The notes beneath the pieces were generated by a model. That model was not told where the DNA came from and searched no databases. It saw only the letters and a program-made list of their open reading frames with translations. Positions 14,783-62,706 of a stretch of 64,000 nt of DNA are shown here, piece by piece. Every line of letters starts with the position of its first letter. Within the stretch, counting starts at the first letter, position 1. The DNA comes from a bacterium (GTDB taxonomy: Bacteria; Verrucomicrobiota; Kiritimatiellia; CAIKKV01; CAITUY01): the NCBI GenBank assembly GCA_037143175.1, contig JBAWZF010000011.1:3747-67746 (forward strand), given 5' to 3'. The position numbers and the translations under genes are program-made.

Positions 14783-14785
14783 CCT

Positions 14786-15781: not shown

Positions 15782-16809
15782 CGGTCACCAGCATAAATTC
15801 TTTTTTTCAGAAAAATTATGACAGGCTTATAGCTGCGGTCGTGCTTATGGCGTTGCTGGCCTCGCTGGTTTTCCTTGCTGTTCAGGCCAAAGTTCAAAAA
15901 ACTGGGCAACAGGAGTTTGATAGCAAACTTGCAGGTTTGACTCCGAAATTTGCAAAGGCTGCCCCTGCGGACAAAACTATTTTCCGGGATGCATTAACGG
16001 CCATTGCAAACCCATTCCAGGCTGAAGAGTGGATGCAGGATCTTTTGTTAACCCCTGAGCTGAGGGTTCGCTGTGTGGTGTGTGAACGGCCCATCCCCTA
16101 TGCTGCGACAAACTGTACGTTTAAGGCTTGCGGCGTTGAGCAACCTACTGAAAAAGTCCACTTGGATGATTCAAATAGTAATAGGATCCCTGATGAGTGG
16201 GAAAAGAAATATTCGTTCTTTTCCATGACTTCCGACGAAATGACAGTTGATCATGATAATGACGGTTTTACATCCAGAGAGGAATACGACTGGAAAACGG
16301 ATCCACGGGATACGGGAAGCCATCCGCCGTACCTGGCAAAAGTCAGAGTTTCCGGGATTAAACCGATTCCATTCAGGATGATATTTAAGGCGGTAAACCG
16401 TGCGGGTGGAAAGCTGATCTTTCAGATTAATTTGCAGGCAAACGGGAGATCGTTCTACAAGAGTTTAGGGGAAGATGCGGAAGGCTTTAAATTGGCCTCC
16501 TATGATGAGAAGGCTGCGGACGGCCCTACTCTGACGCTGGAGCGTAATGGAAAGCAAATTCCCTTAATTAAAGGGCATCAAGTGCCGCGTGATGATTATG
16601 AGATTTCGTTAGTCTCGCTCTTGGATGAATCGGTTTTTGTTGTGCGGCCGGATGTGGATTTCGAATTTAAGGGAGACCGGTACAGGGTTAAAAAAGTTGA
16701 CACACAAGGGAGTCGTGTACTAATAAGCGACCCTTTACGGAATGTGGATGTTTGGATTGAGCGGCAGGCGCCTAGCGTAGATCAACCAGCGGCAACCCCC
16801 ATTAGATAA
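15778..16809 (+). CDS. membrane-anchored hypothetical protein with a Cys4 zinc-ribbon-like motif (PilP position)
   Basis: N-terminal TM helix, CVVCERPIPYAATNCTFKAC, and an acidic DHDNDGFTSREEYDW calcium-binding-like motif. 4-bp overlap with the upstream gene. Confidence 0.5.
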   Translation: MTVTSINSFFQKNYDRLIAAVVLMALLASLVFLAVQAKVQKTGQQEFDSKLAGLTPKFAKAAPADKTIFRDALTAIANPFQAEEWMQDLLLTPELRVRCVVCERPIPYAATNCTFKACGVEQPTEKVHLDDSNSNRIPDEWEKKYSFFSMTSDEMTVDHDNDGFTSREEYDWKTDPRDTGSHPPYLAKVRVSGIKPIPFRMIFKAVNRAGGKLIFQINLQANGRSFYKSLGEDAEGFKLASYDEKAADGPTLTLERNGKQIPLIKGHQVPRDDYEISLVSLLDESVFVVRPDVDFEFKGDRYRVKKVDTQGSRVLISDPLRNVDVWIERQAPSVDQPAATPIR

Positions 16810-16853
16810 TAAAGCCGCAAGGCTGTGACTAAAGAATGTAAGGAGAACGATTT

Positions 16854-32619: not shown

Positions 32620-32800
32620 ACCAGAAGCCGTGAAGTAAGTATGGAAGTTCGTGAAATTCGAACGCGGTCGCGCCGCTGTAACCGGATACGAAACCCTTAA
32701 ACCACTCCTGTCAAGGCAGGGGGAAGGTGGGTAGTAGGTCTGAAGCCGGAAGTCAGAAGACGTTTTACTTCATGCTCAATGGACAGGTAACAGGATTTGT
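32620..32800 (+). promoter_or_regulatory. cobalamin (AdoCbl) riboswitch
   Basis: GGAAGTTCGTGAAATTCGAACGCGGTCGCGCCGCTGTAACCGG parallels the E. coli btuB core GGGAAUCCAGUGCGAAUCUGG...GCGCAGCGGUAAGG. B12-box-like ACCACTCC...GGGAAGG. Sits upstream of a TonB-dependent receptor. Confidence 0.8.
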
Positions 32801-32900: not shown

Positions 32901-33009
32901 TGCGTTGAGAGACCGTGAGCAGCTGGCCGATGGAGGTGGATCAGGAATGGGGCGTAGGACTGGATCCGGCGCTCGGGATGCTGAAACGGGTGGATTGGGA
33001 GTCAACGAA

Positions 33010-34884: not shown

Positions 34885-35649
34885 ATGGGGGACAGCATTC
34901 AGAATTCAGGAATGATGGGAAGAATCCTGTTGAGCCCGACCTTGCGTCGGGCTTTCCCCCTTTCTCTGCTTTTGCATGTATTGGCTGTGGCGATAGTTTT
35001 GATCGGCATCAAGTATTGGCCGGTGGCTCCAGTCAGGTCGGTTCCAGTCGGGATGGTATTGGATGTCACCGAGCCAATGCGACCACAGGTGACTGCCGAA
35101 GAGCTGCCTGGGTTGGGCCAGGTGCTGGCGGAGATACCGCCAGAATCACGGATTGTGCCTTCCCCTGCAGTGCCTGAAACCCTTGCGCCCATGATTCCTG
35201 AGCCAGCCATCAAAGCTCCTGACCAGGTGTCGTTGTGGGTGCCGGTGATGCCTGAGGTGAGCCCAGTTGCCGGGGGCTCGCAGATCATGCAACCACCTGC
35301 CGTTCATACGTCTGGCCCGGCGGCGGGCATGGGGGTGCAGTCACAGTCTGTTTCCGGCGAGGGGCAGATTAAAGGTGGGCGGCCTATCGCGCTTTCAGAG
35401 ATCGTGCCGCGTTATCCCTATGGGGCAAGGATGCGTGGCGAGGCAGGGCGGGTGACAGTACATGTGCGCGTAAGTGACAAAGGGGTGGTGGAATCTGTGG
35501 AGGTTGTGAATGGAAGCGGCCATCCGGCATTGGATGACTCGGCCGTCACGGCGACAAAGAAGGCTCGATTCAAGCCTGCTGAGCAGGATGGAAAGCTCGT
35601 TCCTTCCGATATGAATCTACAATTTGAATTCCGGCTTGAGGAGCGGTAA
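34885..35649 (+). CDS. tonB: energy transducer TonB
   Basis: N-terminal TM helix, Pro-rich spacer (PEPAIKAPD...), and C-terminal TonB domain (IVPRYPYGARMRGEAGRVTVHVRVSDKGVVESVEVVNGSGHPALDDSAV). Confidence 0.8.
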   Translation: MGDSIQNSGMMGRILLSPTLRRAFPLSLLLHVLAVAIVLIGIKYWPVAPVRSVPVGMVLDVTEPMRPQVTAEELPGLGQVLAEIPPESRIVPSPAVPETLAPMIPEPAIKAPDQVSLWVPVMPEVSPVAGGSQIMQPPAVHTSGPAAGMGVQSQSVSGEGQIKGGRPIALSEIVPRYPYGARMRGEAGRVTVHVRVSDKGVVESVEVVNGSGHPALDDSAVTATKKARFKPAEQDGKLVPSDMNLQFEFRLEER

Positions 35650-48209: not shown

Positions 48210-49382
48210 CTATTTCCCCATCGCCACTTCGAGGGCCAACACGGTATAGGAGGTCACCAGGACGTCATTGGCCTCCCAGAAGCGGTTATTGGTGTTGACC
48301 CAATAGCCATGGCCGGTCTTGGAATCCACTTTTTGAAGGCCGACCAATTTCTTTACAAGTGCCTCGCGCCACATGATCTGACTTTGATCCTTGGCGGGGA
48401 TGGCATCGCGGCCATAGGCGGCCAGGGCCTTGCTGAGGACGCCGTAGAAATAATAGAGCCCTTGATCGCCCATGCCGGGGTTTTCGTCCAGTGTCCAATG
48501 TTTGGCGGCCCAATCAAAGGCTGATTGAACGCGCGGGTCATTCTTGTTTACATCGGCATAGATCAGACTCAGCAAACCTGCGTAGGTCATGCTGCCATAG
48601 GATCGAAAGACGACGATACCTTCCTTATTGGTGGTGGTGCCCGCCTTGCTCTCATCAGGCCGGTAAGCGAAGCCCCCGGCATTTTCAGCGCCGGTGGACG
48701 GCTTATTTTGGAGTCGGTCGAGGTAACGCACTGCGGCGGCCCAATCCAGATCCACATGGGCCTCTGATTTATCGCGAAGATCCTCGGCGCTTTGGGTCAG
48801 GCGCATGGATTCATAGGCAATGACGGAATCGCTTAAATCGGTATAGTCGCGGCCGCTTTCGCGATCGTAGCCCATTCCGCCTTCATAGCGGTCATCGCCG
48901 AAATGTTGTCCGGCGGCCACAAACTTCCGGGCTTTGAGAACGATGGGGGTATACTGCGGGTCATTGAGCGAGTGGAGGGCAATCATACAGAGGGCGGTAT
49001 TATAATTGCTGAGTCCGCCTCCCTTGCCGGGAATTTTGCGATAGATGCCGCCATCTGCCTGGACGTTGCCCAAGATGAATTTTGCGGCTTTGGCCGTGAC
49101 TTCGGCTTTTTTAGGATGATTACTCATGCTGAACGCCCAGAGCGGCAGTGCCGTCAGGGCGGGAAAACTGGCTTCCGACCAGGATCCATCTTCCTTTTGC
49201 TGGGCGGCCAGCCAGTCCAGTCCCCGGTTGAGGGCGGCTTCGGTTTCCTTGGACGTGGAGATGTCAATTTTGCCGCCAACAGCTTGTTTGGTGACGAGCG
49301 TCTCCGAGGCGGCGGATGCGGTGAACATCGAGGTTACGAGGCTTAATACGACCAGATGACAGATAAACGCCTGTTTTTTCAT
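48210..49382 (-). CDS. secreted prenyltransferase/squalene-oxidase-repeat (terpenoid cyclase-like alpha/alpha toroid) protein
   Basis: Signal peptide and repeated QxxxGxW-like motifs (QQKEDGSWSE, GGFAYRPDE, YYFYG). Confidence 0.45.
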   Translation of the reverse strand: MKKQAFICHLVVLSLVTSMFTASAASETLVTKQAVGGKIDISTSKETEAALNRGLDWLAAQQKEDGSWSEASFPALTALPLWAFSMSNHPKKAEVTAKAAKFILGNVQADGGIYRKIPGKGGGLSNYNTALCMIALHSLNDPQYTPIVLKARKFVAAGQHFGDDRYEGGMGYDRESGRDYTDLSDSVIAYESMRLTQSAEDLRDKSEAHVDLDWAAAVRYLDRLQNKPSTGAENAGGFAYRPDESKAGTTTNKEGIVVFRSYGSMTYAGLLSLIYADVNKNDPRVQSAFDWAAKHWTLDENPGMGDQGLYYFYGVLSKALAAYGRDAIPAKDQSQIMWREALVKKLVGLQKVDSKTGHGYWVNTNNRFWEANDVLVTSYTVLALEVAMGK

Positions 49383-49505
49383 AAGACTACTCCTTCTATT
49401 AAGTGCTACCTGAGCATTATATACTTCCTTCTGTAGGTCTCAAACAGATTAAACGCTGGCGGAGCCGAAAGAGTTCGCTAGGATTTGGAAATAGAGATCC
49501 CCTCG

Positions 49506-49559
49506 TAATTTCAGACTTCCTGTTATGTTGAGCTCAACATAACAGGAAGTCTGAAATTA
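49506..49559. repeat. perfect 54-bp palindrome (27-bp arms, no spacer) in a divergent intergenic region
   Basis: TAATTTCAGACTTCCTGTTATGTTGAG/CTCAACATAACAGGAAGTCTGAAATTA. I reverse-complemented it by hand and it is perfectly self-complementary. Confidence 0.9.
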
Positions 49560-49664
49560 TCAGGAAAGGCTCGATTTTATTGTTGGGTGGCGATATTTTA
49601 TTGCTGGTTGAGGGGAATCGTCGTAAATTTTAATCCCTATTTATCGAGTGATCGGGATAATCGC

Positions 49665-49895
49665 ATGGCAAAAGGTAAAACGGAAATTGACATGGATTTG
49701 TGTAAGGGCTGCGGCCTCTGTCTTACAGCGTGTAAGTTCAATGTTTTGAAGCTATCCAATCCGGAGCAGGTTAACAAATATGGATATCGTTTCATGGTTT
49801 CGGCTCAACCAGAGCTGTGCACGGGTTGTGGGTTATGTGCTCTGATGTGTCCTGACAGTGCCATTTCGGTGTGGCGCTCTAAAGCGAATCATTAA
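49665..49895 (+). CDS. 2-oxoacid:ferredoxin oxidoreductase delta subunit (2x[4Fe-4S] ferredoxin)
   Basis: Two CxxCxxCxxxCP motifs (CKGCGLCLTACKF, CTGCGLCALMCPD). Confidence 0.8.
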   Translation: MAKGKTEIDMDLCKGCGLCLTACKFNVLKLSNPEQVNKYGYRFMVSAQPELCTGCGLCALMCPDSAISVWRSKANH

Positions 49896-49912
49896 GGGTT
49901 GATGGGTGTCTT

Positions 49913-51022
49913 ATGGGCGAACGAGTGTTAATGAAGGGAAACGAGGCGATTGCTGAAGCAGCTATTCGAGCTGGCGTGCAGTCCTATTTCGGCTATCCGA
50001 TTACACCCCAAAATGAACTGATTGCCTACATGTCTGTGCATATGCCTGCGAAAGGCCGGACGTTTATTCAGGCGGAGAGTGAATTGGCGGCAATCAATAT
50101 GGTGTATGGCGCCGCAGCGGCAGGCATGCGCAGTATGACAAGTTCATCGAGTCCCGGACTCTCCCTCAAGCAGGAAGGAATCTCGTATCTTGTAGGGGCT
50201 CAGCTGCCTGCGGTGATTGTGAATATCATGCGGGGGGGGCCCGGCCTGGGTAATATTGCGCCTTCGCAAGCGGACTATTTTCAGGCCTGCAAGGGGGGCG
50301 GGCATGGTGATTATCATCTGGTGGTGTATGCTCCAGCTACGGTGCAGGAGGCTGCCGACCTGACCACCAAATCGTTTGATGTGGCAGACCGCTATCGCAA
50401 TCCGGTGCTTATTTTGGGGGATGCCATTATCGGACAGATGATGGAGCCTGTGGTACTGAGCGAGAGCACCCCGAACCCACCGCCCAAACCGTGGGCAGTG
50501 GGGGGGATCCGGAATGGACGAAAACCCAACTTGATCAACTCTCTTTCATTGGAAGAAGGCGTTGTTGAGGAGTGGAACTGGCTTTTCAAAGCCAAGTATG
50601 AGGAAATTAAGAAAAACGAACTCATGGTTGAAATGCTTGATTGTGAGGATGCGGATCTGATTTTAGTCGCGTATGGAACGACCTCCCGCATCTGCAAGGA
50701 AGTGTTACGCCAGTCGCGCGCCAGGGGGTTGAAGGTGGGCTTAATCCGTCCGATCACGCTCTGGCCGTTTCCCTATAGAGCCATTGCGCAGGCGGCCCGG
50801 AAAACCCCTGAATTTCTTGTGGTTGAGATGAGTCTGGGGCAGATGATTGAAGACGTCAAGTTGGCGGGGCTAGGTGATGCGGCGATCCATTTTCATGGCC
50901 GGCCGGGTGGCGGAGTTCCGCGTGAGATCGATATCAGGGAAATTATTGAGCATGTGCTGGTGCAAAAAAGAGCAGGCAAAATCGCCACGCGGGGAACCGT
51001 GATTGATTGGGAAATTTCCTGA
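49913..51022 (+). CDS. 2-oxoacid:ferredoxin oxidoreductase alpha subunit
   Basis: GYPITPQNELIAYMS and overall PorA/VorA similarity. Confidence 0.85.
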   Translation: MGERVLMKGNEAIAEAAIRAGVQSYFGYPITPQNELIAYMSVHMPAKGRTFIQAESELAAINMVYGAAAAGMRSMTSSSSPGLSLKQEGISYLVGAQLPAVIVNIMRGGPGLGNIAPSQADYFQACKGGGHGDYHLVVYAPATVQEAADLTTKSFDVADRYRNPVLILGDAIIGQMMEPVVLSESTPNPPPKPWAVGGIRNGRKPNLINSLSLEEGVVEEWNWLFKAKYEEIKKNELMVEMLDCEDADLILVAYGTTSRICKEVLRQSRARGLKVGLIRPITLWPFPYRAIAQAARKTPEFLVVEMSLGQMIEDVKLAGLGDAAIHFHGRPGGGVPREIDIREIIEHVLVQKRAGKIATRGTVIDWEIS

Positions 51023-51034
51023 GGCAAGTGTTTT

Positions 51035-51811
51035 ATGAGCGATATGGAAATGGAAAAAATTGCCGGACGATCCTCGTTGTGGGATGCCAAGCCTTCTCCC
51101 TATTGTCCGGGTTGTGGACATGGGGTGGTGCACCGGGTGCTATGCGAATTGATTGAAGAATACAATCTCGCTGACAATTGCGTCTTTATGGCGCCAGTAG
51201 GGTGTTCCATCCTGGCCTACACTTTTCTGGGACTGGATGTCTGTCAGTCAGCCCATGGCAGAACGCCTGCGGCAGCGACGGGTATCAAGCGAGCCCGTCC
51301 GGATACGTTTGTTCTGGCCTATCAGGGAGATGGGGATCTGGCTTCGATCGGTACAGCGGAAATAATTCATGCCGCCAATCGCGGGGAAAACATCACCACC
51401 ATTTTCGTGAATAATGCGATTTACGGAATGACTGGCGGCCAGATGGCTCCCACGACCCTCGCGGGGCAGACGGCCACGACTTGCTCGAACGGGCGTGATG
51501 CGTCATTGGGGATGGGGAATCCGCTCCGTGTTTGTGAGATGCTTCAGAGCCTGGCGGGAGTGACCTATCTGGCGCGCACGACGGTGCATACTCCGGCAAA
51601 TGTGATCAAGACAAAGATAGCCATTAAGAAGGCTTTTGATGTGCAACTCAAGCGGCAGGGGTTTTCGTTGGTGGAAATTCTTTCTTCCTGTCCGGTCAAC
51701 TGGGGTATGCAGCCCGTTGCGGCCTTGGATTTTGTTGATAAGAAGATGGTGCCTCAATACCCATTGGGCGAGTTCAAGGTGGGTGGTGTTTCTGTCACAC
51801 CAGGGGCATAG
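51035..51811 (+). CDS. 2-oxoacid:ferredoxin oxidoreductase beta subunit (TPP-binding)
   Basis: CPGCGHG and a TPP-binding GDG...N region. Confidence 0.85.
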   Translation: MSDMEMEKIAGRSSLWDAKPSPYCPGCGHGVVHRVLCELIEEYNLADNCVFMAPVGCSILAYTFLGLDVCQSAHGRTPAAATGIKRARPDTFVLAYQGDGDLASIGTAEIIHAANRGENITTIFVNNAIYGMTGGQMAPTTLAGQTATTCSNGRDASLGMGNPLRVCEMLQSLAGVTYLARTTVHTPANVIKTKIAIKKAFDVQLKRQGFSLVEILSSCPVNWGMQPVAALDFVDKKMVPQYPLGEFKVGGVSVTPGA

Positions 51812-51822
51812 GAAGGCGTATC

Positions 51823-52359
51823 ATGGAGCATCGTTGCATATTTTCCGGATTTGGTGGTCAGGGCATCGTTTCACTGGGGACTTTGGTGGCCAATGCCGGA
51901 ATGGCGGATAACCGTTACGTGACATTTTTTCCTTCGTACGGTATCGCCATGCGTGGGGGAATGGCGAGTTGTACCATTGTGGTATCTGATCACGAGATTA
52001 ATTCGCCGATCGTAAATGATCCGACTGTTTTGATGGTCATGGATGAGGCGTCCTACGATTGTTTTCATGGCAAGGTGGCTTCAGGCGGATTGATGTTTGT
52101 GAATTCAAGCCTGGTCAATAAGCGGATTTCACGTCCGGATGTTAAAGCGGTATATATTAATGCTACTGGTATTGCGCTCGAGCACGGGGATGGCCGCATG
52201 GCTAATATGGTGATGCTGGGTGCCGTTATCAAGTTGACCCGTATAGTTTCTTTTGAAGCCGTAGAAACGGCCATTAATAAAATTCCTTCGGTCAAGCTTC
52301 ACTCGCTTATCGGTCGGAATTTGCAAGTCATGAAGCTTGGATTTGAGGAAGCGAAATAG
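51823..52359 (+). CDS. 2-oxoacid:ferredoxin oxidoreductase gamma subunit
   Basis: FSGFGGQGIVSLGTLVANAG motif. Confidence 0.8.
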   Translation: MEHRCIFSGFGGQGIVSLGTLVANAGMADNRYVTFFPSYGIAMRGGMASCTIVVSDHEINSPIVNDPTVLMVMDEASYDCFHGKVASGGLMFVNSSLVNKRISRPDVKAVYINATGIALEHGDGRMANMVMLGAVIKLTRIVSFEAVETAINKIPSVKLHSLIGRNLQVMKLGFEEAK

Positions 52360-52374
52360 ATTAGGAGTTAGGTC

Positions 52375-53391
52375 ATGTCGTCCAAAATTGATTTTGACAA
52401 ACTGTGTTTTTCAATCACCCCCGGTGATACCATGTTCATCAGCAAATGTAAGGCAGATGGTGTGTGGGATAAAGGGGCCTGTCTGCCTTATGGGGACATC
52501 CCCATTTCTCCAGCCGCAGGGGTGTTGAATTATGGCCAGGGTTTGTTTGAAGGTCTCAAGGCGATGCGGACGAAAACCGGGAAAGTGGTGTTGTTCCGTC
52601 CTTCCGAAAACGGAAAGCGTATGACTGAGGGCGCCCATCGTGTCTGTATGCCTCCATTCCCTGTGGATAGGTTTGTGGAGGTGATTTGTGAGATTGTGCG
52701 CCGGAATGTAGCCTTTGTTCCTCCTTATGGGAAAGGCAGTCTTTACATTCGTCCGTGTCTTTGGGGGACGGGGCCAGTGTTGGGGGTCTCTCCTGCTCCA
52801 GAATTCACTTTTATGGTGTATGTCTCGCCTGTGGGCCAATATTTCAAAACAGGTGTCAAACCCATCAAGCTTGAGATCACTCGTGATTTTCACCGTGCAG
52901 CACCGAAGGGGACGGGCGGAGTGAAGTCTATTGGTAACTATGCGGGCGCCATGCTGCCTGCAAAAATCACCAAGGCTAAAGGATTTAACGAGTGTATTTA
53001 TCTGGATGCGCATGAGGATAAGTATATCGAGGAAGTGGGCGCGGCTAATTTCTTCTGTGTGAAGGACCATACGTTGCTGACGCCCAAGCTTGGTTCGATA
53101 TTGCCAGGCATCACCCGCAAATCGGTGATGCAGATTGCTCAGGATGTCATGGGATTGCAGGTGATCGAGAAGAGTCTATCGGTGGAGGAGGCGTTTTCGG
53201 CCGATGAGGCCTTCTGTTCCGGTACCGCCGCCGTGATTAGTCCCATTGGCTCCATTACTTGTGAAGACCAGGTGAAAATTTATCAAGATTTTGAGGTGGG
53301 GCCGGTCACTCAATCTTTGTACGATCATTTGACGCGTATCCAATTGTGTGAGGAAGAGGATCGATTCGGCTGGGTTGTTGAGGTCATGTGA
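52375..53391 (+). CDS. ilvE: branched-chain amino acid aminotransferase (fold type IV)
   Basis: GQGLFEGLKA, SLYIRP, ANFFCV motifs of BCAT. Confidence 0.85.
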   Translation: MSSKIDFDKLCFSITPGDTMFISKCKADGVWDKGACLPYGDIPISPAAGVLNYGQGLFEGLKAMRTKTGKVVLFRPSENGKRMTEGAHRVCMPPFPVDRFVEVICEIVRRNVAFVPPYGKGSLYIRPCLWGTGPVLGVSPAPEFTFMVYVSPVGQYFKTGVKPIKLEITRDFHRAAPKGTGGVKSIGNYAGAMLPAKITKAKGFNECIYLDAHEDKYIEEVGAANFFCVKDHTLLTPKLGSILPGITRKSVMQIAQDVMGLQVIEKSLSVEEAFSADEAFCSGTAAVISPIGSITCEDQVKIYQDFEVGPVTQSLYDHLTRIQLCEEEDRFGWVVEVM

Positions 53392-53409
53392 TCCGCGAAA
53401 TCGGGAAGA

Positions 53410-54615
53410 GTGGTCGTTCGTCCATGCCTGTTTTATTCCATGATTACAAAGCGCATACTTTGGTTAATGCTGTTCCTTATAGCTCTGCCGCTATGGGGGC
53501 AGACAGGCCCCTCGGATGTTGCGTCTGCCAGGGTGGTGATTGAGTTTTTCTTTGAAGTGGGGTGCGATAGCTGTGCTGAGGTGCGGGGGACGGTGTTACC
53601 TGAATTGGAACAACGGTTTTCGGGCTACTTTGATCTCCGTGAGCGAGACATTGGCATTCAGTCTAATTATCTTGCTCTGGTTCATTATCAGGAGGCTGCT
53701 CATGTTAAGGATAATGAGCCGGTCTGTATGGTCGTGGATGGACGGGATTATCTGCCAGGTGTGGATCGCATCAAAAAACAGTTTTTCCCCGCTTTGGATC
53801 AGGCGTTGATCCGGTATCAGACGGGTGCCAGCCCCGCGCCCCTCCCTGCAGAGGCCGGTACGGGATTGACTGATGTCTCGCTTTTGCAGCGTCGAATTGA
53901 TCGGTTTACGATTCTGGGGGTGATCTCCGCTGCTGCGGTGGATAGCATCAATCCCTGTGCCATTTCAGCGTTGGTCTTTTTTATGAGTTTCCTTTCGGCG
54001 GCGCGGATCGGGGTGCCTCGAATGTGGCTCTCCGGGCTGGCGTTTCTCGCGGCTTGTTTTGTGACGTATTTGGGGATTGGGTTTGGCCTTTTGAAGGTGT
54101 TGGGCTTTCTGACTGCTTTTCACGCATTAAAGGGAGTCATTGATGGTGGTCTGATATTGATGCTGCTCGGTTTTGCGTGCTTCTCCTTTCGGGACGCTTT
54201 GAAATATCATCGGACGGGTTTGGCTTCGGATGTCACGCTAAAATTGCCGATGAAGATTCAATCTATGATTCATCAGGTCATCAAAAGTGGCCTGCAGAAC
54301 CATCACTTGATCCTGGGGGGGCTCGGAATAGGAGTGGTCGTCACGGTGTTGGAGAGTGTTTGTACGGGGCAGGTATATGTTCCGGCGCTTGTTATGATGT
54401 TAAAAGGAGGACACTCCATTTTGCGGTGCACGGTTTACTTACTGGTGTATAATGCGGTTTTCGTGATGCCGTTACTTATTGTGCTGGGGCTGACATGCGC
54501 CGGCATGAAGACCCCGGCGCTTGTCGCCTGGAGTCGACGGAATGTTGTTACGAGTAAGATTATGTTGGGGTTATTGTTTATGGGAATGACCGCACTGATG
54601 GTGCTGTTACATTGA
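53410..54615 (+). CDS. DsbD/CcdA-family thiol-disulfide transporter with an N-terminal periplasmic CxxC domain
   Basis: Signal/TM, CDSC motif, then a multi-TM domain with Cys residues in helices (DSINPCAISALVFF, VCTGQVYVP). Confidence 0.55.
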   Translation: MVVRPCLFYSMITKRILWLMLFLIALPLWGQTGPSDVASARVVIEFFFEVGCDSCAEVRGTVLPELEQRFSGYFDLRERDIGIQSNYLALVHYQEAAHVKDNEPVCMVVDGRDYLPGVDRIKKQFFPALDQALIRYQTGASPAPLPAEAGTGLTDVSLLQRRIDRFTILGVISAAAVDSINPCAISALVFFMSFLSAARIGVPRMWLSGLAFLAACFVTYLGIGFGLLKVLGFLTAFHALKGVIDGGLILMLLGFACFSFRDALKYHRTGLASDVTLKLPMKIQSMIHQVIKSGLQNHHLILGGLGIGVVVTVLESVCTGQVYVPALVMMLKGGHSILRCTVYLLVYNAVFVMPLLIVLGLTCAGMKTPALVAWSRRNVVTSKIMLGLLFMGMTALMVLLH

Positions 54616-54634
54616 TTTCAGAGGAGAAGCGAAA

Positions 54635-55003
54635 ATGAAGAAAACGGATAAGCCGGTTAAGGTACAGGGAAGAATGCGGGTTTTGGCGGCTCATGCGAGG
54701 GCTGTGGCGGACTCGCAGGCCGTTAAGGCGGAGAGCCGCATTGTAATTGCGGTAATCGGCGAGGATCGTCCTGGAATTATGGCAGGAGTGACGGGGGTTC
54801 TGGCCAAGGTGGATGCTAACATCCTGGATGTGAGCCAGACGATTATGAGCGATCTTTTCACAATGGTCATGCTGGTGGATATCAAGCGGATTTCCGTCCC
54901 TTTCTCTAAATTGAAAGCGACTTTGGAAGCTTATGGCAGGAGTTCCGGGCTCTCCATCATTTCGCAACATGAAGAGATATTCCAGGCAATGCATCGAGTT
55001 TAA
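54635..55003 (+). CDS. ACT domain protein (UPF0237 family)
   Basis: VIAVIGEDRPGIMAGVTGVLAKVDANILDVSQTIM ACT fold. Conserved partner of the UPF0210 gene. Confidence 0.7.
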   Translation: MKKTDKPVKVQGRMRVLAAHARAVADSQAVKAESRIVIAVIGEDRPGIMAGVTGVLAKVDANILDVSQTIMSDLFTMVMLVDIKRISVPFSKLKATLEAYGRSSGLSIISQHEEIFQAMHRV

Positions 55004-55026
55004 GCAGGACGATCAGGGGATAAAAG

Positions 55027-56391
55027 ATGGCTATCAGTTCACAGGAAATTATTGAAACGCTGGGCATGATTCATGCCCAGAATCTGGATATCCGCACTGT
55101 GACCATGGGCGTTGACCTCCATGATTGTGCGGGTGAGGATGTCGCGCGTGTGTCCCGGAAGTGCTACGAAAAGGTCATGAGAATGGCTGAACGATTAGTG
55201 CCGACCGCGGAGGAGGTGGCGCAGGAATATGGTATCCCCATTATTAATAAACGCGTTTCTGTCACGCCCATCGCCTGGGTGGCAGCGGCTTGTGAATCGG
55301 AGGATTATACGCCGATTGCCCGAGAACTGGATCGTGCGGCCCGCGAACTGGGGATCGATTTTATCGGAGGCTTTTCGGCTTTGGTTCAGAAAGGGATGAC
55401 TCCGGCGGGTGAGGCCTTGATCCGTTGTATTCCCCGGGCGTTGGCGCAAACCTCCCGTTTGTGTTCCTCGGTTAATATTGGAACGACTAAAGCTGGCATC
55501 AATATGGACGCTGTGGCCCTGATGGGGCAAATCATCAAGGAATCCGCCCTTTTGACAGCGGATAGTGGTGGCAGTGCCTGTGCCCGGCTTGTAGTGTTTT
55601 GTAATGCAGTCGAGGATAACCCTTTTATGGCCGGGGCCTTTTTAGGAGCGGGAGAGGGAGATGGCGGGTTGTCTGTCGGGATTTCCGGGCCGGGTACCAT
55701 CCGGGCGGTTGTTCAGGCACTGGGACGTGATCTGGATTTGCAGATGGTGGCTGAGGAAATCAAGCGGGTGGCATTTAAGATTACCCGGGCGGGTGAGTTG
55801 GTGGGGCGAAAATGTGCCGCGCGGTTGGGCGTGCCGTTTAATATTATCGATCTTTCATTGGCACCCACGCCTGCGCCGGGGGATTCAGTCGCAGACATTC
55901 TGGAGGGGTTGGGATTGGATAAGGTGGGGTGTCCCGGAACAACCGCAGCGCTTGCATTGCTGAATGATGCGGTTAAGCGAGGCGGGGCGATGGCTACGAG
56001 TCGGGCAGGCGGAATGAGCGGAGCCTTTATCCCGGTGAGTGAGGACGCCACGATGGCGCTTCGTGCGGCGGAAGGTTCCCTCACGATCGAGAAGCTTGAG
56101 GCCATGACGGCGGTGTGTTCCGTGGGATTGGATATGGTTATATTGCCGGGCGATACTTCAGCGGAAACCTTGAGCGGCATTATTGCGGATGAGGCCGCCA
56201 TTGGGATGATTAATAAAAAAACCACAGCGGTCAGGGTGATTCCTGCGCCGGGTAAGAAAGTCGGTGATTTTGTAGATTTTGGCGGGTTGCTGGGCGGGGG
56301 GCCTGTTATGCCTGTGAATAATCACTCCTGTGCCGTCTTTATCCGTCGTGGTGGGCGTATCCCCGCTCCATTGCAAGGGCTGAGTAATTAA
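55027..56391 (+). CDS. UPF0210 (DUF711) family protein
   Basis: N-terminus [27 protein letters not shown] is typical of UPF0210. About 450 aa. Confidence 0.7.
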
Positions 56392-56393
56392 TC

Positions 56394-57272
56394 GTGACGA
56401 CCAGCATTCCAGATAAAGGCCGCGGCGAGCAGCGTGAAAATCTATTCTTTCTGTTTGTGATCCTGGCGGTCACGGTGATTGCGTATGGCCCCCTAATGGG
56501 TGGGGTATGGGAGATGAGTGCCCAGACCACTCAGGCCCTTAATGCCTTCGTGTTGTTGGGTGTGGCATTTGTAGATGCGCTGCTTACGGCGGTAAAAATG
56601 GGGCCGTTTCGACCCGCAATCAATTCCCACGGTTTGTTATTATTCGGGCTGTCCTGTCTGGCTCTGGCGACGGCATCCCTAGCGCAAGTATGGCCTTTTT
56701 CGGTTTTGGGATTATGTCTGAATGTGGGTGCCTTGTTATCGTTCTGTTTTGGCAAGAATGGGGTGAGGGCATTTTATCCCGCACTTGCGGGGTTTGCGGT
56801 GGTGGTTCTAATGCTGGTATTAGTACCGCAAGTTGATGAAACACTGAGGTTGCTTGCGGGCCGGATGTCTGCCTGGATATTGCCACTCCTCGGCATCCGG
56901 ATTGAATATTTAGTCCAGGCGATGCCCTTTCAAGTTTATCTTGTTGCGGAGAGAGGTGCGGGGGTGTTCAACGTGGCTACCGAATGCAGTGGTATGGGTA
57001 TTCTGATGTCCTCGATGGTGTTAAGTTTGATTCTAACCCTCAAGCGTCGAGTTCCGGCCTATGGTGTTATTCTTTTGCTGGCCGCATCCATGGTGATCGG
57101 GCTGGGGTTCAATATTCTTCGAATTGTGGCAATTGCGCTAACCGCACTCCGTACGGATCTCCCGTATTCCGTTATTCATGAAGGACTGGGAACAGGAGTT
57201 TATTTGTTGGCATTGCTGACCATATGGCTATTGAACTATTTGCCAATTACTGGAAGCCGTTCTTCATTATAG
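56394..57272 (+). CDS. exosortase/archaeosortase-family membrane transpeptidase (short form)
   Basis: Eight TM helices. Catalytic-triad-like motifs GAGVFNVATECSGM (Cys), FNILRIVAIAL (Arg), YSVIHEGLGTG (His). Starts 3 bp after the UPF0210 stop. Confidence 0.6.
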   Translation: MTTSIPDKGRGEQRENLFFLFVILAVTVIAYGPLMGGVWEMSAQTTQALNAFVLLGVAFVDALLTAVKMGPFRPAINSHGLLLFGLSCLALATASLAQVWPFSVLGLCLNVGALLSFCFGKNGVRAFYPALAGFAVVVLMLVLVPQVDETLRLLAGRMSAWILPLLGIRIEYLVQAMPFQVYLVAERGAGVFNVATECSGMGILMSSMVLSLILTLKRRVPAYGVILLLAASMVIGLGFNILRIVAIALTALRTDLPYSVIHEGLGTGVYLLALLTIWLLNYLPITGSRSSL

Positions 57273-57315
57273 GTGAGGATGCAGGCTGAAATTTTTTCTC
57301 GCATGATGGCGGCCG

Positions 57316-58098
57316 TTAGTTCTTTAGGTTGTCGGCCTGGTTTGTTGATGTTTCGCTGGCGCCCATGTTGGTGAAGTTATCGGGGACTGTCGATTCCTTC
57401 GGGTTTTGTGCGCGGGCTGCATCGAGAAAGCGGGTGGCAAATTCCATTTCACTTTGCGCAAGCTTAATTTCCTGCTCAATATTATTAGTCCTCGACTGAA
57501 TGAGCATGTCTTCGGCTTCGACAATCTCTGGGGGTGATGAGGTGAGGATGACTGTTGGGTTAATGAGTATGGTTGGGATATTTGTGACCATCCAGTCGGT
57601 ATTATTGGTGTCATTATTAGTGTAGGGGCGACTGAGGCGGGCGGCTGGGGTTGGGGGCGGAGTAATCTTGAAGAAAGAGCAATTACCTATCAGGAGAATG
57701 GTTGCTAAAACCAAAAGAGGCAGCCCGATGGTGAGCAATTTTCGCCATTTGCGGAAGCCCGCAAGGCCTTCCCACGTTCCCGTATTGAGGTAAGATTGGA
57801 CAAATAATCGTGTATGGCCGATTTCGATCACATCACCGTGTTTAAGGGGTGATTCATGAACTTCTGATTTGTTGATCAGGAGGCGGTTGGTTTCTCCCAT
57901 GACGCAAATCTGGAGTTGCTCGGCGCGGGGAGTGATCTTGGCGTGGAGTTCGCCGATTTCTGAATCGGGTAGACAAATGTCACAGGAACTGCCTCGTCCA
58001 ATGGTAACTGGGGAGCGTCCGATAGTGAGACGTTCCCCATGCTTTTCCCCATTAAGTATGACAAGTTGATAAGACATAAAGTGAGGCATCATACACAA
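57316..58098 (-). CDS. FHA domain protein with a single TM helix and an Asn/Thr-rich extracytoplasmic tail
   Basis: FHA motifs (LTIGRSPVTIGRGSSCDICLPD, SEIGELHAKI, NKSEV, GDVIEIG) followed by TM LLTIGLPLLVLATILLIG. Confidence 0.7.
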   Translation of the reverse strand: MCMMPHFMSYQLVILNGEKHGERLTIGRSPVTIGRGSSCDICLPDSEIGELHAKITPRAEQLQICVMGETNRLLINKSEVHESPLKHGDVIEIGHTRLFVQSYLNTGTWEGLAGFRKWRKLLTIGLPLLVLATILLIGNCSFFKITPPPTPAARLSRPYTNNDTNNTDWMVTNIPTILINPTVILTSSPPEIVEAEDMLIQSRTNNIEQEIKLAQSEMEFATRFLDAARAQNPKESTVPDNFTNMGASETSTNQADNLKN

Positions 58099-58128
58099 GC
58101 CTTAGCGGCGATTGCAGTCTTTTTTGCG

Positions 58129-60039
58129 TCAGTCGGTCAATCGTTGCGAGACGTAATCGGTATGGAGGGTGGGCGGTGGGATGGGGATATCGAACCAAGC
58201 CTGAAGTTCGAGATCTAAACCGGTGCCATACATGTAATTGTAAAGGGATTTCCGGAGTCCGCAGCCCATAGCGTGATGATCGCATTTAACGGAATCCGTG
58301 AAAGGGACTTCATTGCGGGCGAAACTGGATTTTGGGAACCTTGAGAGGCGGATCCCGAACTTGCGGGGATCCATATAAATTGGGCTGTGGATTGTGAGTG
58401 CAAAGCGATGCCAATAGGCAGACTGAATGCATCCCGCTTCAAATAGTTGTCTCACATATTCCAGTGAATCCACCGTGTCTTGGATCGTTTGGGAGGGGCA
58501 GCCATACATGAGGTAGGCGTGAACCAGGATGCCCGCCTCACTTAATGCATGGGTGACTTGGGTGACTTGGTTGAGATTAAATCCTTTTGCAAGAAGGGTG
58601 AGAAGGCGGTCGGTAGCGGATTCCAGTCCGCCTGTTACGGCGATACAGCCTGATTTAGCCAGTAAGGCGGCGAGTTCGGGAGTGAAGGCTTTATCAAAGC
58701 GGATATTTCCCCACCAGGTGATTTTGAGATCACGTTCGATCAGTTGTTGCGCAAGTTTTCTCAGCAGGACTGGCGGCATGGCTTCGTCCACAAAGTGAAA
58801 CCCTGTTTGGCCGGTTTGTCTGATGATCTCCTCAATCTGCGAGATCAGGAATTCGGGAGAAGCGGGCACATAGTGCTGGATGTAGTCTAGACTGGTGTCG
58901 CAGAAGGCGCATTGGTGCCAGTAACATCCGTGAGCGAGCGTCAGTTTGTTCCAGCGCCCACATGACCAGATTTTGTGCATGGGATTGGGCAACTCGATCA
59001 AGGAGAAATAACGATCCAGCGGTAGTTCGGAATACTGGGGCGTGACGGGGGCCAAAGGTAATCTGGGAGATGGCATGTCTGACGTATTCCCATTTCCCGA
59101 GAGGAAACAAACACTTCCATTTTTGCGGATAAAAGTCCGTTCGAAATGCGGCGTGATGCGGGGATTGAGAAGTGTTAGAAGCGGAGTCTTCAGGTTCTCC
59201 AAGTGTTCGATAATACGCAAGATCGGACGGTCTCCCCCGTCGAGGGTGATGTAGTCGGCATAGTCGAATACGCGGAGATCAGAAAGTGAGCGAAGCTCAG
59301 TATTGATATAGCCACCGCCCATAACAATGGGAAGGTGTGGATCCTGCTTTTTGATATGCCGTGCCATTCGGAATGCAGCATAGACATTCCCAGGGAAGGG
59401 GAGGGTGAAGCCCACCAATTCAGGGTGATGAGTGTTCAGCAGTTCATCAGCTATATCATCAATCATGGAATCAATCAGGGTGGGTTTCCTGCGCAGGGCG
59501 GAGGCGATGCCGTCAAACGAGGAGGCGCTTGCGGCGAGTTTCTCAGCGTACTTTGCCAATTCAAAGCGGGCGTCGACGCCATCGCGAATAGCATCGGTAA
59601 GATCGTCAAGGTAAAGGCTTGCGAGATGAATGGCCAGGTCGTGGGTGGACAGATGCCCGAGGGTAGGAGCAAGATGGGCATGAGCTTCGGCCAGCGCTTT
59701 GAAACGGGGCCCTTCAGGCAGGAATTGGTGAGAGGCAATCCGCCATGCCAAGGTGGGATCCTTGCCCTGAAGGAAGCGGATGACGGGTTCGATAGTGGAG
59801 GCGTACTTTTTTGAGTGTCGTAGGAAATGGCGGACACTGTGTGAACGAGCTCCAGGTTTCATGACCTTGGCGACTTGGCGTAGTCCTGAACGGGAGAACA
59901 TGCGGAGTGCCAACATGAGCGCAGCATCGGCTTGAACAACCTTGTGTTTTGAAGGCTTTAGCAGGCCAGCCAGATAAGCGGTAGCCGGGTAGGGTGCATT
60001 TACTTGCACCATAGGGGGCGTTATCAGGAGGATGCGCAT
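58129..60039 (-). CDS. B12-binding-domain radical SAM protein (class B-like) with an atypical CX4CX2C cluster motif
   Basis: N-terminal MRILLITPP and LVGFTLPF...PIVMGGGY Rossmann-like B12 domain with a large insertion. CYWHQCAFC motif and VTGGLES (GGE-like motif). Confidence 0.65.
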   Translation of the reverse strand: MRILLITPPMVQVNAPYPATAYLAGLLKPSKHKVVQADAALMLALRMFSRSGLRQVAKVMKPGARSHSVRHFLRHSKKYASTIEPVIRFLQGKDPTLAWRIASHQFLPEGPRFKALAEAHAHLAPTLGHLSTHDLAIHLASLYLDDLTDAIRDGVDARFELAKYAEKLAASASSFDGIASALRRKPTLIDSMIDDIADELLNTHHPELVGFTLPFPGNVYAAFRMARHIKKQDPHLPIVMGGGYINTELRSLSDLRVFDYADYITLDGGDRPILRIIEHLENLKTPLLTLLNPRITPHFERTFIRKNGSVCFLSGNGNTSDMPSPRLPLAPVTPQYSELPLDRYFSLIELPNPMHKIWSCGRWNKLTLAHGCYWHQCAFCDTSLDYIQHYVPASPEFLISQIEEIIRQTGQTGFHFVDEAMPPVLLRKLAQQLIERDLKITWWGNIRFDKAFTPELAALLAKSGCIAVTGGLESATDRLLTLLAKGFNLNQVTQVTHALSEAGILVHAYLMYGCPSQTIQDTVDSLEYVRQLFEAGCIQSAYWHRFALTIHSPIYMDPRKFGIRLSRFPKSSFARNEVPFTDSVKCDHHAMGCGLRKSLYNYMYGTGLDLELQAWFDIPIPPPTLHTDYVSQRLTD

Positions 60040-60056: not shown

Positions 60057-61277
60057 CTATCGGCCCAGCAAATTCCGTGACGCCATGATGTCCTTGAGTC
60101 GGGCTATGCTCTTTTCCGCCTGCAGCAATTCAGGGCCAAACTCGTCTGTGATAGAGGCGAGCAATTGATTGAGCGCAGCGATTTTCGACTCCAGTGGAGC
60201 GACCTTAGCTTCCAGATCAGCGATTTTACGGTTAGCGGTCATGGCATCAATAGCCGCTTTCCCAGCGAGATCATGAAGCGCATGTTCGGCCTCTTGAACG
60301 CGCATTTCGGCATATTGCACCTTCTTTTCAGCCTCATCCAAGCGCATAACAAAGCGCGATGATTCTTTGGTGGCTGATTCGAGCTTTGACTTCAGAGTGG
60401 CGATTTCTCCCACAAGTACCGTTGTGCCCGGTGAAGTGCGGGCCGTTGATAATGGCTCGTTCAAGCTCACTTCCGGCGGGGTCCACTTGGCAACAGGCGT
60501 AGGGAGTGGGGAAGGCTCCGGTTGCAGGCGCGGGACAACCTCTTCAACAACTGGTGTGGGAGCCGGCGCTGGCGGAGGGGGGACTGGAAGTGGAGCGACA
60601 GGAATAGCCGCCGGTGCTGGAGGTTCGATCGGCGCGACGGGTGCAGGGGGAACAGCAATTACTGGTTCTGCAACGGGGGCTTTTGCGGCAGCAGCCGGTT
60701 CAGGCAAAGTGACCGGGATGATGCCTGAGCACTGCTTGCATTTGATTTTTTTTCCGATGAGCGTTTGTGAAACTTTGGTCTGCCACTGGCAGGCCGGGCA
60801 GACGACGGGAATATTGGCCCCGCTGGAGGCATCTGGAACCTGGCCGAGGACGATAGGAGCGGCCGCTTTTTTGGCGGTGCTAACAGGCGAAGAAGAGGGG
60901 GCTTGTTGCATCGGTTTCGGCGGCGGAGTTAATTGAGCAGTATCACTTGCCGCAGCGGCTGGGGACGTAACGACAGGCGTGACTGGCGCAACGACAGGGG
61001 CGGCTGGGGCCACGACTGCAGGAGCCGCTTGCGGTGGAGGTGCAAGCACAACAGGAGTTGCAGCAATGGGGGCAAAGGGTGTGCTGGCGACAGGTGCGGG
61101 GGTAGCCGGAACTGAGGGTGCCTGAACAGGGGTGGCGGCAGCGGCTGGGGCACCCTTGCCAACGGGAATGGGTTTGCCGCACTTCGGGCATTTCACTTCC
61201 GTAGGCATTCTGGCCGGCATGGCCTTGATTTTAAGCTTAGCCTTACAATTTCCACACTCAATAGGAATCAATTCCAT
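60057..61277 (-). CDS. double zinc-ribbon, Pro/Ala/Val-rich, C-terminal coiled-coil protein
   Basis: Two CxxC...CxxC ribbons (CGNCKAK...CPKCGKP; CPACQWQ...CKQCSG), long PAV low-complexity linkers, and a C-terminal heptad-rich region of about 120 aa. Confidence 0.7.
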   Translation of the reverse strand: MELIPIECGNCKAKLKIKAMPARMPTEVKCPKCGKPIPVGKGAPAAAATPVQAPSVPATPAPVASTPFAPIAATPVVLAPPPQAAPAVVAPAAPVVAPVTPVVTSPAAAASDTAQLTPPPKPMQQAPSSSPVSTAKKAAAPIVLGQVPDASSGANIPVVCPACQWQTKVSQTLIGKKIKCKQCSGIIPVTLPEPAAAAKAPVAEPVIAVPPAPVAPIEPPAPAAIPVAPLPVPPPPAPAPTPVVEEVVPRLQPEPSPLPTPVAKWTPPEVSLNEPLSTARTSPGTTVLVGEIATLKSKLESATKESSRFVMRLDEAEKKVQYAEMRVQEAEHALHDLAGKAAIDAMTANRKIADLEAKVAPLESKIAALNQLLASITDEFGPELLQAEKSIARLKDIMASRNLLGR

Positions 61278-61422: not shown

Positions 61423-62706
61423 TTATAGCACACTGTGATGTTTGCGGATTCTGGCTGTTTCATGGAGGGATACCCGCGCCTGGGAAGCAAAGTCCTGCCA
61501 TGCTGAAACCGTTTTCCCAACCTGTTGTAGAACCTTTGCGGCGGTGCCGATGCCGAATCGGTCTGCCACAGCCAGCAGGTCGGCTCGGGAGATGCCGGAG
61601 AATTTCCCATTGACCGCCATGAGATGTTGATTCGTCCATTCGCCTTCGGGATTGTGGGCATGGGTTACATCGTAGGCTGGGGCTAGCGTCCAGCTTCCCC
61701 TCTCGCGCAGCAGGAACGTGAAGTTTTTGCTGTGGTCGTCGCAATTGGCTGCCATCACATTGAAGGCCATCCGGCGGAACGCTTCTTCCATGGCTGTATA
61801 TCCAAGTTTCAGGCGTGAGATCGTCTGGAAGAGTTGACTGTAATCGTGGCTGGCCTTCTGCTTGTAATCCAAGTGCGCCATTGCGCAAAGGGTCTGCATG
61901 TGATGTTTGCGGTTTCCGTCCCGGTCGAAGCGCAGGGTCATGAAGTGTGCTCGGTCGTTTTCCTCCAACAACCGGGAGGATGACATGGTCATGCCGGCGG
62001 ACGTGGCCATCAGGTAGTAGGCGTATTCGATCCGCCCATAATCCTGAGAACTTCCCAATTCCCGATCTGTGCCCATGCCGTCGAATTTAAGCAGCCAGTG
62101 TTCATAGCCGGGGGCGACATCGAACTGTCCGGCGCGGATCTCCTGTGTCGTCGGGTTCCATGCAATCACCGCTTTTGCCCTGGCTCCGCCCGCCGAGGTT
62201 CCCACCCGGATGATCTGTGTCAGCGCTGCTCCGGCCAAATGGTCCGCGCCGAGATCGCCCCGCACGGCAAGGCGGGCACTTTCGACAAGTTTGGCAAGAG
62301 AGAGCGCCGTACTGTTAATTGTCGCTGGACTGCGGGCCGGCCGGAATTCCAGGGCTCCCATGCCGCGTTTCCCCATATAGGCTAGACGATCCAGGGGCGT
62401 GATATGCGAGCGATCAACACCTTGCATGGCCATCCAACCGTCAATTAGTGTATTGCCAAAATCATCCGGAAGGGCATCGGCCAGCAGGGCGGGCAGGCGT
62501 TTGTAGGTCAGTTCAGGCAGGTCTGTGAACACGAAAGGGGCGCTCGCTTGGGCAAGGGGCATGGTCAGGGGTGCAAGCTCGATGCCCGACCGAACGAAGG
62601 CCGGATCGTATTCAAACGCATAGTACCCCAATCGGGAGTCCAGCGCCACGGCTCCGACCGTCTTTTCCCACAAGCGGACTTCGATGATATGGACAGGCTT
62701 ATACAT
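61423..62706 (-). CDS. hipA: HipA-family serine/threonine kinase toxin
   Basis: HipA N-terminal and C-terminal domains, and the catalytic motif ANCDDHSKNFTFLL. Confidence 0.8.
   Translation of the reverse strand: MYKPVHIIEVRLWEKTVGAVALDSRLGYYAFEYDPAFVRSGIELAPLTMPLAQASAPFVFTDLPELTYKRLPALLADALPDDFGNTLIDGWMAMQGVDRSHITPLDRLAYMGKRGMGALEFRPARSPATINSTALSLAKLVESARLAVRGDLGADHLAGAALTQIIRVGTSAGGARAKAVIAWNPTTQEIRAGQFDVAPGYEHWLLKFDGMGTDRELGSSQDYGRIEYAYYLMATSAGMTMSSSRLLEENDRAHFMTLRFDRDGNRKHHMQTLCAMAHLDYKQKASHDYSQLFQTISRLKLGYTAMEEAFRRMAFNVMAANCDDHSKNFTFLLRERGSWTLAPAYDVTHAHNPEGEWTNQHLMAVNGKFSGISRADLLAVADRFGIGTAAKVLQQVGKTVSAWQDFASQARVSLHETARIRKHHSVL

Follow-up and report, generated by a model that had tools for sequence, protein, structure and literature searches.

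Why does a gene for a predicted membrane transpeptidase lie directly behind two genes for cytoplasmic proteins? We met this question in a 64,000-nucleotide stretch (hereafter the window) of contig JBAWZF010000011.1, from a bacterium of the Kiritimatiellia (assembly GCA_037143175.1). There, a UPF0237-family ACT-domain protein and a UPF0210 protein are followed by an exosortase/archaeosortase-family protein (hereafter Xrt) and preceded by a DsbD/CcdA-like thiol-disulfide membrane protein. UPF0210 and UPF0237 are among the most conserved prokaryotic gene pairs without a function, so that any reliable neighbor would be valuable. A preliminary description of the locus proposed that the sortase's activity is tied to UPF0210, or that the linkage is a clue to what UPF0210 does. 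Comparison of related loci leads us to a different reading, to which we assign a probability of roughly 60%: the string is an operon peculiar to one clade, formed from autonomous modules that came to lie side by side, and Xrt shares a transcript with the ACT/UPF0210 pair without depending on it biochemically.

The identity of Xrt could be settled at the level of the superfamily. The open reading frame (ORF) at 56394–57272 (+ strand), the last gene of the string, encodes a 292-residue protein that passes the hidden Markov models (HMMs) PF09721 (Exosortase_EpsH; 70.2 bits, cutoff 25.7) and TIGR04178 (exosortase/archaeosortase signature; 43.7 bits, cutoff 23). Kyte-Doolittle hydropathy predicts eight transmembrane (TM) segments, at residues 17–35, 49–67, 81–99, 102–120, 126–144, 198–216, 224–242 and 265–283. 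An AlphaFold2 model made with 18 homologs as input (mean predicted local distance difference test score, pLDDT, 83.6) likewise contains eight long helices, together with a short beta-hairpin in the loop 170–193. A search of the PDB for an exosortase structure, by sequence profile and by Foldseek with this model, returned none.

The catalytic signature is complete and correctly placed. The EpsH family is defined by eight TM helices and by invariant Cys-x-Gly, Asn-x-x-Arg and His-x-x-x-Gly motifs, each of them at the outer end of one of three successive helices (Haft et al. 2006, PMC1569441). In Xrt, the putative nucleophile Cys198 (codon 56985–56987) opens TM6 at its predicted outer start within ECSG (C198-S-G200), R243 closes TM7 at its predicted outer end within FNILRI (N240-I-L-R243; codons 57111–57122), and H262 stands in the loop before TM8 within HEGLG (H262-E-G-L-G266; codons 57177–57191). 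The CxG, NxxR and HxxxG residues are invariant in 18 diverse homologs and in each of the 26 sequences from the clade. By hydropathy and the positive-inside rule (a basic N-terminus and a KRR loop at 217–219 between TM6 and TM7), the triad would sit on the periplasmic side. The eight-TM exosortase-family protein of the preliminary description, with its Cys/Arg/His signature arranged as in exosortases, thus holds up: the ORF is a genuine exosortase-type membrane protein and a putative Cys transpeptidase.

Below the superfamily level, classification stops. Xrt passes no named Xrt, Crt or Art subtype model of NCBIfam 20.0, its best subtype scores being 27.7 for XrtD (cutoff 400), 25.5 for XrtW (cutoff 425) and 24.4 for XrtK (cutoff 55). 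The classical exosortase models fail as well, with 27.8 bits on TIGR02602 (8TM_EpsH; cutoff 105.55) and 27.8 on XrtA (cutoff 208). Relatives down to 29–37% identity in Opitutales likewise pass neither a subtype model nor TIGR02602, and the 82 homolog clusters that we found are annotated at most as "exosortase/archaeosortase family protein". Judged by these scores, Xrt is a member of an uncurated and unnamed exosortase subfamily restricted to the Planctomycetes-Verrucomicrobia-Chlamydiae (PVC) group.

This subfamily coexists with conventional exosortases. Deeper-branching members of the clade have the string inside or close to an exopolysaccharide (EPS) locus that includes a canonical exosortase and EpsI. 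Three such loci (L121, L023 and L022; related loci are cited by handles of this form) carry the canonical enzyme ~1.8–6.5 kb from the string, scoring 153–197 bits on TIGR02602, with EpsI either separate or fused, among genes for Wzy-like proteins, priming sugar transferases and glycosyltransferases. An HMM built from the window's Xrt subfamily gives these canonical exosortases 66–84 bits, as against 350–430 bits for clade members. The window's Xrt is therefore a second, divergent paralog in an uncultured freshwater lineage with a conventional EPS/exosortase system. The 64-kb window itself yielded neither a canonical exosortase nor a priming sugar transferase, tblastn with two EpsI proteins as queries found no EpsI there, and Xrt has neither a C-terminal extension nor a fused EpsI domain.

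The two genes ahead of Xrt form the expected pair. The ACT-domain protein (54635–55003, +), the partner of UPF0210, scores 111.6 bits on NF001220 (cutoff 74) and also matches PF13740. The UPF0210 protein (also DUF711 or "PFL family protein"; 55027–56391, +) matches NF003700 with 703 and PF05167 with 609 bits, and aligns over its full length with PDB 2HA9, the UPF0210 protein SP0239 of Streptococcus pneumoniae (E-value 2.5e-163). Both are soluble cytoplasmic proteins. The preliminary description had called the pair conserved and uncharacterized, rightly on both counts: searches of the literature for UPF0210, DUF711, UPF0237 and SP0239 returned only incidental mentions and no functional study. 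UPF0210 of the window shares 64–67% identity with proteins listed by NCBI under Firmicutes names (Thermoanaerobacteraceae, Clostridia, Peptococcia). To our knowledge, the Firmicutes groups that carry UPF0210 relatives (Thermoanaerobacteraceae, Clostridia, S. pneumoniae) have no exosortase systems. As a separate observation, the ACT protein bears a basic N-terminal extension of ~33 residues (54635–54733) with the motif RVxAAHARAVADSQ, outside the 90-residue NF001220 model; ACT proteins are similarly long (116–119 residues) in PVC relatives with or without an exosortase downstream (L023 8126–8482; L035–L038).

Xrt is almost certainly co-transcribed with the pair, because its GTG start follows the UPF0210 stop after only 2 nt. 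Direct reading of the junction (56389–56396, +) gives TAA-tc-GTG, so that the third base past the stop is the first of the GTG, in agreement with the preliminary description. An in-frame TAA at 56385–56387 leaves the GTG at 56394 as the sole possible Xrt start ahead of the conserved TM1, and the junction has no space for a separate intergenic promoter. The gap between ACT and UPF0210 is 23 nt, and the + strand from 49587 to 57272 is a single tightly packed gene run in which no gap exceeds 23 nt. A promoter and terminator scan of 49300–58300 found no + strand promoter-like or convincing terminator-like site in the run and fewer sites than in shuffled controls, which is weak evidence, and an Rfam scan of the window placed no RNA element within the string or close to it.

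The tiny gap is itself unremarkable, because small spacings are typical of this genome. Among 42 same-strand neighbor pairs in the window, 17 are separated by 5 nt or less and the median gap is 9.5 nt, as counted with longest-ORF starts. Elsewhere in the window, a gene that looks exonuclease-like (5'-3') by sequence only begins 2 nt after a secretin gene, another tiny gap between seemingly unrelated genes.

The adjacency of UPF0210 and Xrt recurs beyond this genome, as the preliminary description required of a meaningful linkage, and it does so within one clade. We compiled 28 distinct loci, comprising 24 subfamily loci from a scan of species-representative genomes, 3 further loci from contig look-ups and the window. 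The closest are metagenome-assembled genomes titled Kiritimatiellia, Verrucomicrobiota or PVC, mostly from stratified lakes. UPF0210 lies directly upstream of Xrt on the same strand in 25 of the 28 loci, all of which belong to a single Kiritimatiellia clade. We therefore conclude that the adjacency arose once. The gap between the two genes ranges from -4 to 198 nt and is 15 nt or less in 12 of 24 measured cases.

The string has outlasted its surroundings. The DsbD-like gene precedes ACT in nearly all string loci, and a DUF1573/Ig-like gene precedes the DsbD-like gene in most of them, though not in the window's subclade; the reconstructed ancestral string is thus DUF1573–DsbD-like–ACT–UPF0210–Xrt, with the DUF1573 gene lost in the window. 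The flanks have turned over. Upstream, the genes for a 2-oxoacid:ferredoxin oxidoreductase (OFOR) and a branched-chain aminotransferase (BCAT) persist in the two closest relatives alone, and downstream an FHA-domain gene is kept only in the nearer half of relatives. In the most divergent string locus, L035, identity to the window's proteins is 41% for Xrt, 39% for the DsbD-like protein and 78% for UPF0210.

Three loci show what becomes of Xrt when the pair is lost. L005 and L008 encode Xrt proteins that are 91% identical, and L005 has undergone a precise 1.97-kb loss of ACT and UPF0210. The breakpoints fall in two near-identical GGGAGCA repeats resembling Shine-Dalgarno sequences (~285–310 in L005; 1210–1225 and 3170–3195 in L008), which suggests excision by microhomology between ribosome-binding sites. 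An equivalent deletion of ACT and UPF0210 separates L010 from L004, and in both L005 and L010 the DsbD-like gene is now followed directly by Xrt. L011, compared with L120, has lost the DsbD-like gene along with ACT and UPF0210, so that a LysM gene directly precedes Xrt. All three loci are nested among string-bearing relatives in the tree and hence record three independent losses. In each of them Xrt is full-length with intact catalytic motifs.

The pair, for its part, keeps other company outside the clade. Scanning metagenome contigs with a UPF0210 alignment yielded 80 diverse UPF0210 loci at 58–66% identity. Our own Xrt HMM, which recovered 37 matches in PVC loci as a control, detected an exosortase in the flanks of none of the 80, and no DsbD-like, OFOR or BCAT homolog was found nearby in any of them. 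Of 67 testable loci, 58 have ACT immediately ahead of UPF0210. Behind UPF0210 the genes are heterogeneous, the largest cluster accounting for 3 of 70, and no third gene recurs. Three near-outgroup loci (L036–L038; UPF0210 67–78% identical) also lack an exosortase beside the ACT–UPF0210 pair. A 271-residue product encoded after UPF0210 in L036 was considered as a candidate and rejected: its translation, judged by eye, looks soluble, has neither TM segments nor exosortase motifs and matches no Pfam model. Conversely, in Opitutales the distant relatives of Xrt are without a UPF0210, ACT, DsbD-like or DUF1573 neighbor. Recurrence among UPF0210 neighbors, which the preliminary description had proposed to look for, is thus real inside one Kiritimatiellia clade and absent from the diverse loci and the near outgroups.

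Taken together, these comparisons indicate a UPF0210–Xrt linkage that is dispensable and of single origin, as the juxtaposition of autonomous modules would predict. Two observations weigh against such a reading. A four- or five-gene order that outlasts complete turnover of its flanks is the usual signature of a selected operon, and a regulatory or functional tie could lie behind it. Moreover, a heuristic scan for PEP-CTERM-like C-terminal tails found none in the window, as the preliminary description had also seen, and none in ~380 kb of related loci. PEP-CTERM substrates are usually dispersed in single-gene operons away from the sortase gene (PMC1569441), and because of this normal dispersal their absence from the window is uninformative. 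The sorting signal of Xrt need not be PEP-CTERM in any case. Candidates for C-terminal tripartite sorting signals proved to be false positives, among them the C-termini of Xrt proteins themselves. A family 2 glycosyltransferase (GT2) gene between Xrt and the FHA gene in many relatives was also considered as a possible substrate gene and set aside, since it encodes a cytoplasmic glycosyltransferase on the opposite strand. This GT2 gene (product of 269–275 residues) occupies that position in L002–L011, L021 and L120 (for example L003 10854–11663, −) and is absent there in the window.

The strongest competitor is functional coupling, in which an ACT sensor and a UPF0210 enzyme regulate or supply the exosortase, through an acceptor or a metabolic signal that gates sorting, and the string is a dedicated pathway. 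Such coupling would explain why the adjacency is shared by other genomes and, despite deep divergence and changed flanks, kept in 25 of the 28 loci, and it would suit the short intergenic gaps, half of those measured being 15 nt or less. We nevertheless think it unlikely. Every case traces to one phylogenetic origin, Xrt stayed intact through three independent clean deletions of its supposed partners, and neither the 80 diverse UPF0210 loci nor L036–L038 include an exosortase. UPF0210 itself remains 64–67% identical to Firmicutes proteins, and it is cytoplasmic, whereas the triad of Xrt is predicted to face the periplasm. The short gaps, finally, are usual in this genome. The proposal that sortase activity is tied to UPF0210, or that the linkage reveals UPF0210 function, is therefore not supported by the single origin, the three losses and the census of diverse loci.

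A second alternative shifts attention to the DsbD-like gene (53410–54615, +), with which the conserved string opens in this genome. The preliminary description called this gene DsbD-like, and its product's cysteines and modeled fold bear the name out, whereas no curated model does: no Pfam or NCBIfam HMM scores above its cutoff, the only approach being PF11139 (SfLAP) at 28.2 bits against 35. Its parts are a signal anchor, a CxxC-bearing periplasmic domain and a domain of six TM segments, and its C52xxC55, C183 (TM1, in NPCA) and C318 (TM4, in SVCTGQVYVP) are invariant in 15 homologs. In an AlphaFold2 model, residues ~40–140 match thioredoxins and glutaredoxins by Foldseek: the top 20 matches, like 48 of the 50 listed, are such proteins over ~80–100 residues, with probabilities of ~1.0 but weak E-values (0.04–0.2). 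The N-terminal domain is thus modeled as a thioredoxin fold. Some homologs are called CcdA in their source annotations. A 100% identical protein is on record (P0083), and because the NCBI product has 382 residues the true start probably lies near 53467.

Inside the Xrt clade and beyond it, this DsbD-like family is most consistently partnered by a DUF1573/HYDIN-like Ig protein that carries a CGC motif. The two genes occur together in L033 (4938–7194), which lies outside that clade, in L035 (2656–4570) and in L121 (7362–9604), and the 601-residue protein P0130, which carries DUF1573-type Pfam domains on DsbD-like sequence, looks like a fusion of the two. These associations suggest an envelope redox pair of PVC bacteria. 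No DUF1573 homolog was found in the window. In L031 and L034 the DsbD-like gene stands alone.

From these facts one could build an envelope module in which the DsbD-like protein, with DUF1573, keeps the exosortase cysteine or cysteine-containing substrates reduced, ACT–UPF0210 being an inserted passenger. Both proteins are predicted to use periplasm-facing cysteine chemistry, DUF1573 and DsbD-like genes stand ahead of the pair in most loci, and excision of ACT–UPF0210 in L005 and L010 brought the DsbD-like gene directly against Xrt. We give this module only a slender chance. DsbD-like homologs in L031, L033 and L034 (43–47% identity) have no adjoining exosortase, distant Xrt relatives have no DsbD-like neighbor, and in L011 and L023 Xrt stands without an adjoining DsbD-like gene. 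The DsbD-like gene is, in sum, tied more consistently to DUF1573 than to Xrt.

A more ambitious version would join all five genes, DUF1573–DsbD-like–ACT–UPF0210–Xrt, in one pathway, with ACT and UPF0210 sensing or making the exosortase acceptor or a licensing metabolite and the DsbD-like protein maintaining periplasmic thiols. Were it true, it would offer the first functional handle on the very widespread UPF0210 family and establish a novel kind of exosortase whose signal is not PEP-CTERM; we regard it as quite improbable. That Xrt is an inactive or repurposed homolog, a pseudo-enzyme or scaffold, would fit its low TIGR02602 score, the lack of a passing subtype model and the absence of PEP-CTERM-like tails from the window and ~380 kb of related loci, but is very improbable given motifs invariant in all 26 clade members at identities down to 41%, a retained full-length eight-TM architecture and the normal dispersal of PEP-CTERM genes from the sortase gene (PMC1569441).

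We return to the operon of autonomous modules and to how it would work. Xrt and ACT–UPF0210 would be translated from one mRNA, and a GTG start 2 nt past the stop of a highly conserved gene may provide low-level, coupled expression that suits a membrane enzyme. A low-abundance membrane protein would in this way ride the transcript of a conserved cassette, and the linkage would amount to shared transcription inherited from one ancestor. By analogy with its family, Xrt would act as a Cys/Arg/His transpeptidase of the inner membrane with a periplasm-facing active site, using Cys198 to remove a C-terminal sorting signal from secreted proteins encoded elsewhere in the genome and passing those proteins onward. 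The three modules, namely DUF1573/DsbD-like (envelope redox), ACT/UPF0210 (a cytoplasmic cassette) and Xrt, are each autonomous in other settings.

What the locus adds is therefore not an annotation of UPF0210. Since the exosortase linkage is lineage-restricted and dispensable, it is not usable for that purpose, and adjacency to Xrt is at best a weak clue to UPF0210 function. All four proteins of the window's string belong to known families. New are an uncurated PVC-restricted exosortase subfamily, coexisting with a canonical exosortase/EpsI system, a clade-specific operon context for Xrt, and natural deletions in which ACT–UPF0210 behaves as an excisable two-gene cassette.

The remaining genes of the packed run and its border lie outside the string. 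The run starts with a ferredoxin gene (49587–49895, +), followed by the OFOR alpha, beta and gamma genes (49913–52359, +) and the class IV (branched-chain) aminotransferase BCAT (52375–53391, +). These neighbors hinted at amino-acid or 2-oxoacid metabolism, and a general link of UPF0210 to OFOR and BCAT was rejected, as none of the 80 diverse loci shares it. In L037 (6476–10897), ACT–UPF0210 is followed by genes for ferredoxin, a pyruvate:ferredoxin oxidoreductase (POR) and an AMP-forming ligase; in the window a four-subunit OFOR and a class IV aminotransferase stand upstream. Beyond Xrt, a convergent gene for an FHA-domain membrane protein (57316–58098, −; PF00498, PF16697) closes the + strand run, and a B12-binding radical-SAM gene (58129–60039, −) follows as a further convergent neighbor. 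The gene for this radical-SAM protein (~636 residues) converges on Xrt in L001 (11754–13628) and in the most divergent clade member, L035 (7312–9231), as well; the protein distantly resembles PhpK or methyltransferases of ribosomally synthesized and post-translationally modified peptides (RiPPs), at 85–87 bits, far below the cutoffs. Next to it, a 406-residue protein (60057–61277, −) has two zinc-ribbon-like segments of the CxxC type, a long middle part rich in Pro and Ala, and a coiled coil at its C-terminus; it matches no Pfam model, and its gene adjoins the radical-SAM gene in L001 too.

Farther off, the window holds several recognizable systems. A cobalamin riboswitch (RF00174, 72.9 bits; 32643–32761, +) lies upstream of a TonB-dependent receptor gene (Plug and beta-barrel domains; 32905–34875), the two looking like a B12 uptake unit, and a TonB-like gene may follow at 34885–35649, a call made on the letters alone. 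A cluster resembling a type IV pilus or type II secretion system (13055–19712, +) runs from PilM (13055–14782) to a 952-residue secretin (16854–19712). A HipA-family kinase (61423–62706, −; HipA_C 163.8 bits plus a HipA N-terminal coupling domain) probably supplies the toxin of a toxin-antitoxin pair. Over positions 1–64000, each 2-kb interval shows positive GC skew (0.07–0.24) and the cumulative skew climbs steadily; up to 57.3 kb, almost every gene reads from the + strand. It seems that the window falls entirely on the leading strand of a single replichore.

How, then, does the string compare with known systems? Its ACT and UPF0210 genes share the two-gene order and short gap of UPF0237/UPF0210 pairs elsewhere, such as that of S. 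pneumoniae SP0239. They differ in the ~33-residue N-terminal extension of ACT and in envelope-gene flanks that occur in this clade only. The DsbD-like protein resembles DsbD, CcdA and ScsB transporters in its periplasmic thioredoxin-fold CxxC domain, six-TM core and invariant cysteines in TM1 and TM4. Unlike them, it passes no curated HMM, its NPCA and SVCTGQVYVP motifs are family-specific, and its usual partner is a DUF1573 Ig-like protein.

Xrt itself matches the exosortase/EpsH family in size (~290 residues), in its eight TM segments, in the CxG, NxxR and HxxxG motifs, which are predicted to cap three successive helices on the outer side, and in belonging to a diderm PVC bacterium whose sortase gene is not beside its substrates. 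It departs from that family by failing TIGR02602 and every named subtype model, by having no EpsI partner or fusion, and by standing, in this genome, behind a cytoplasmic ACT/UPF0210 pair and not among EPS genes. Another counterpart is the canonical XrtA-type exosortase with EpsI in EPS loci: deep-branching relatives of the window carry both kinds of enzyme, and the two paralogs are only distantly related.

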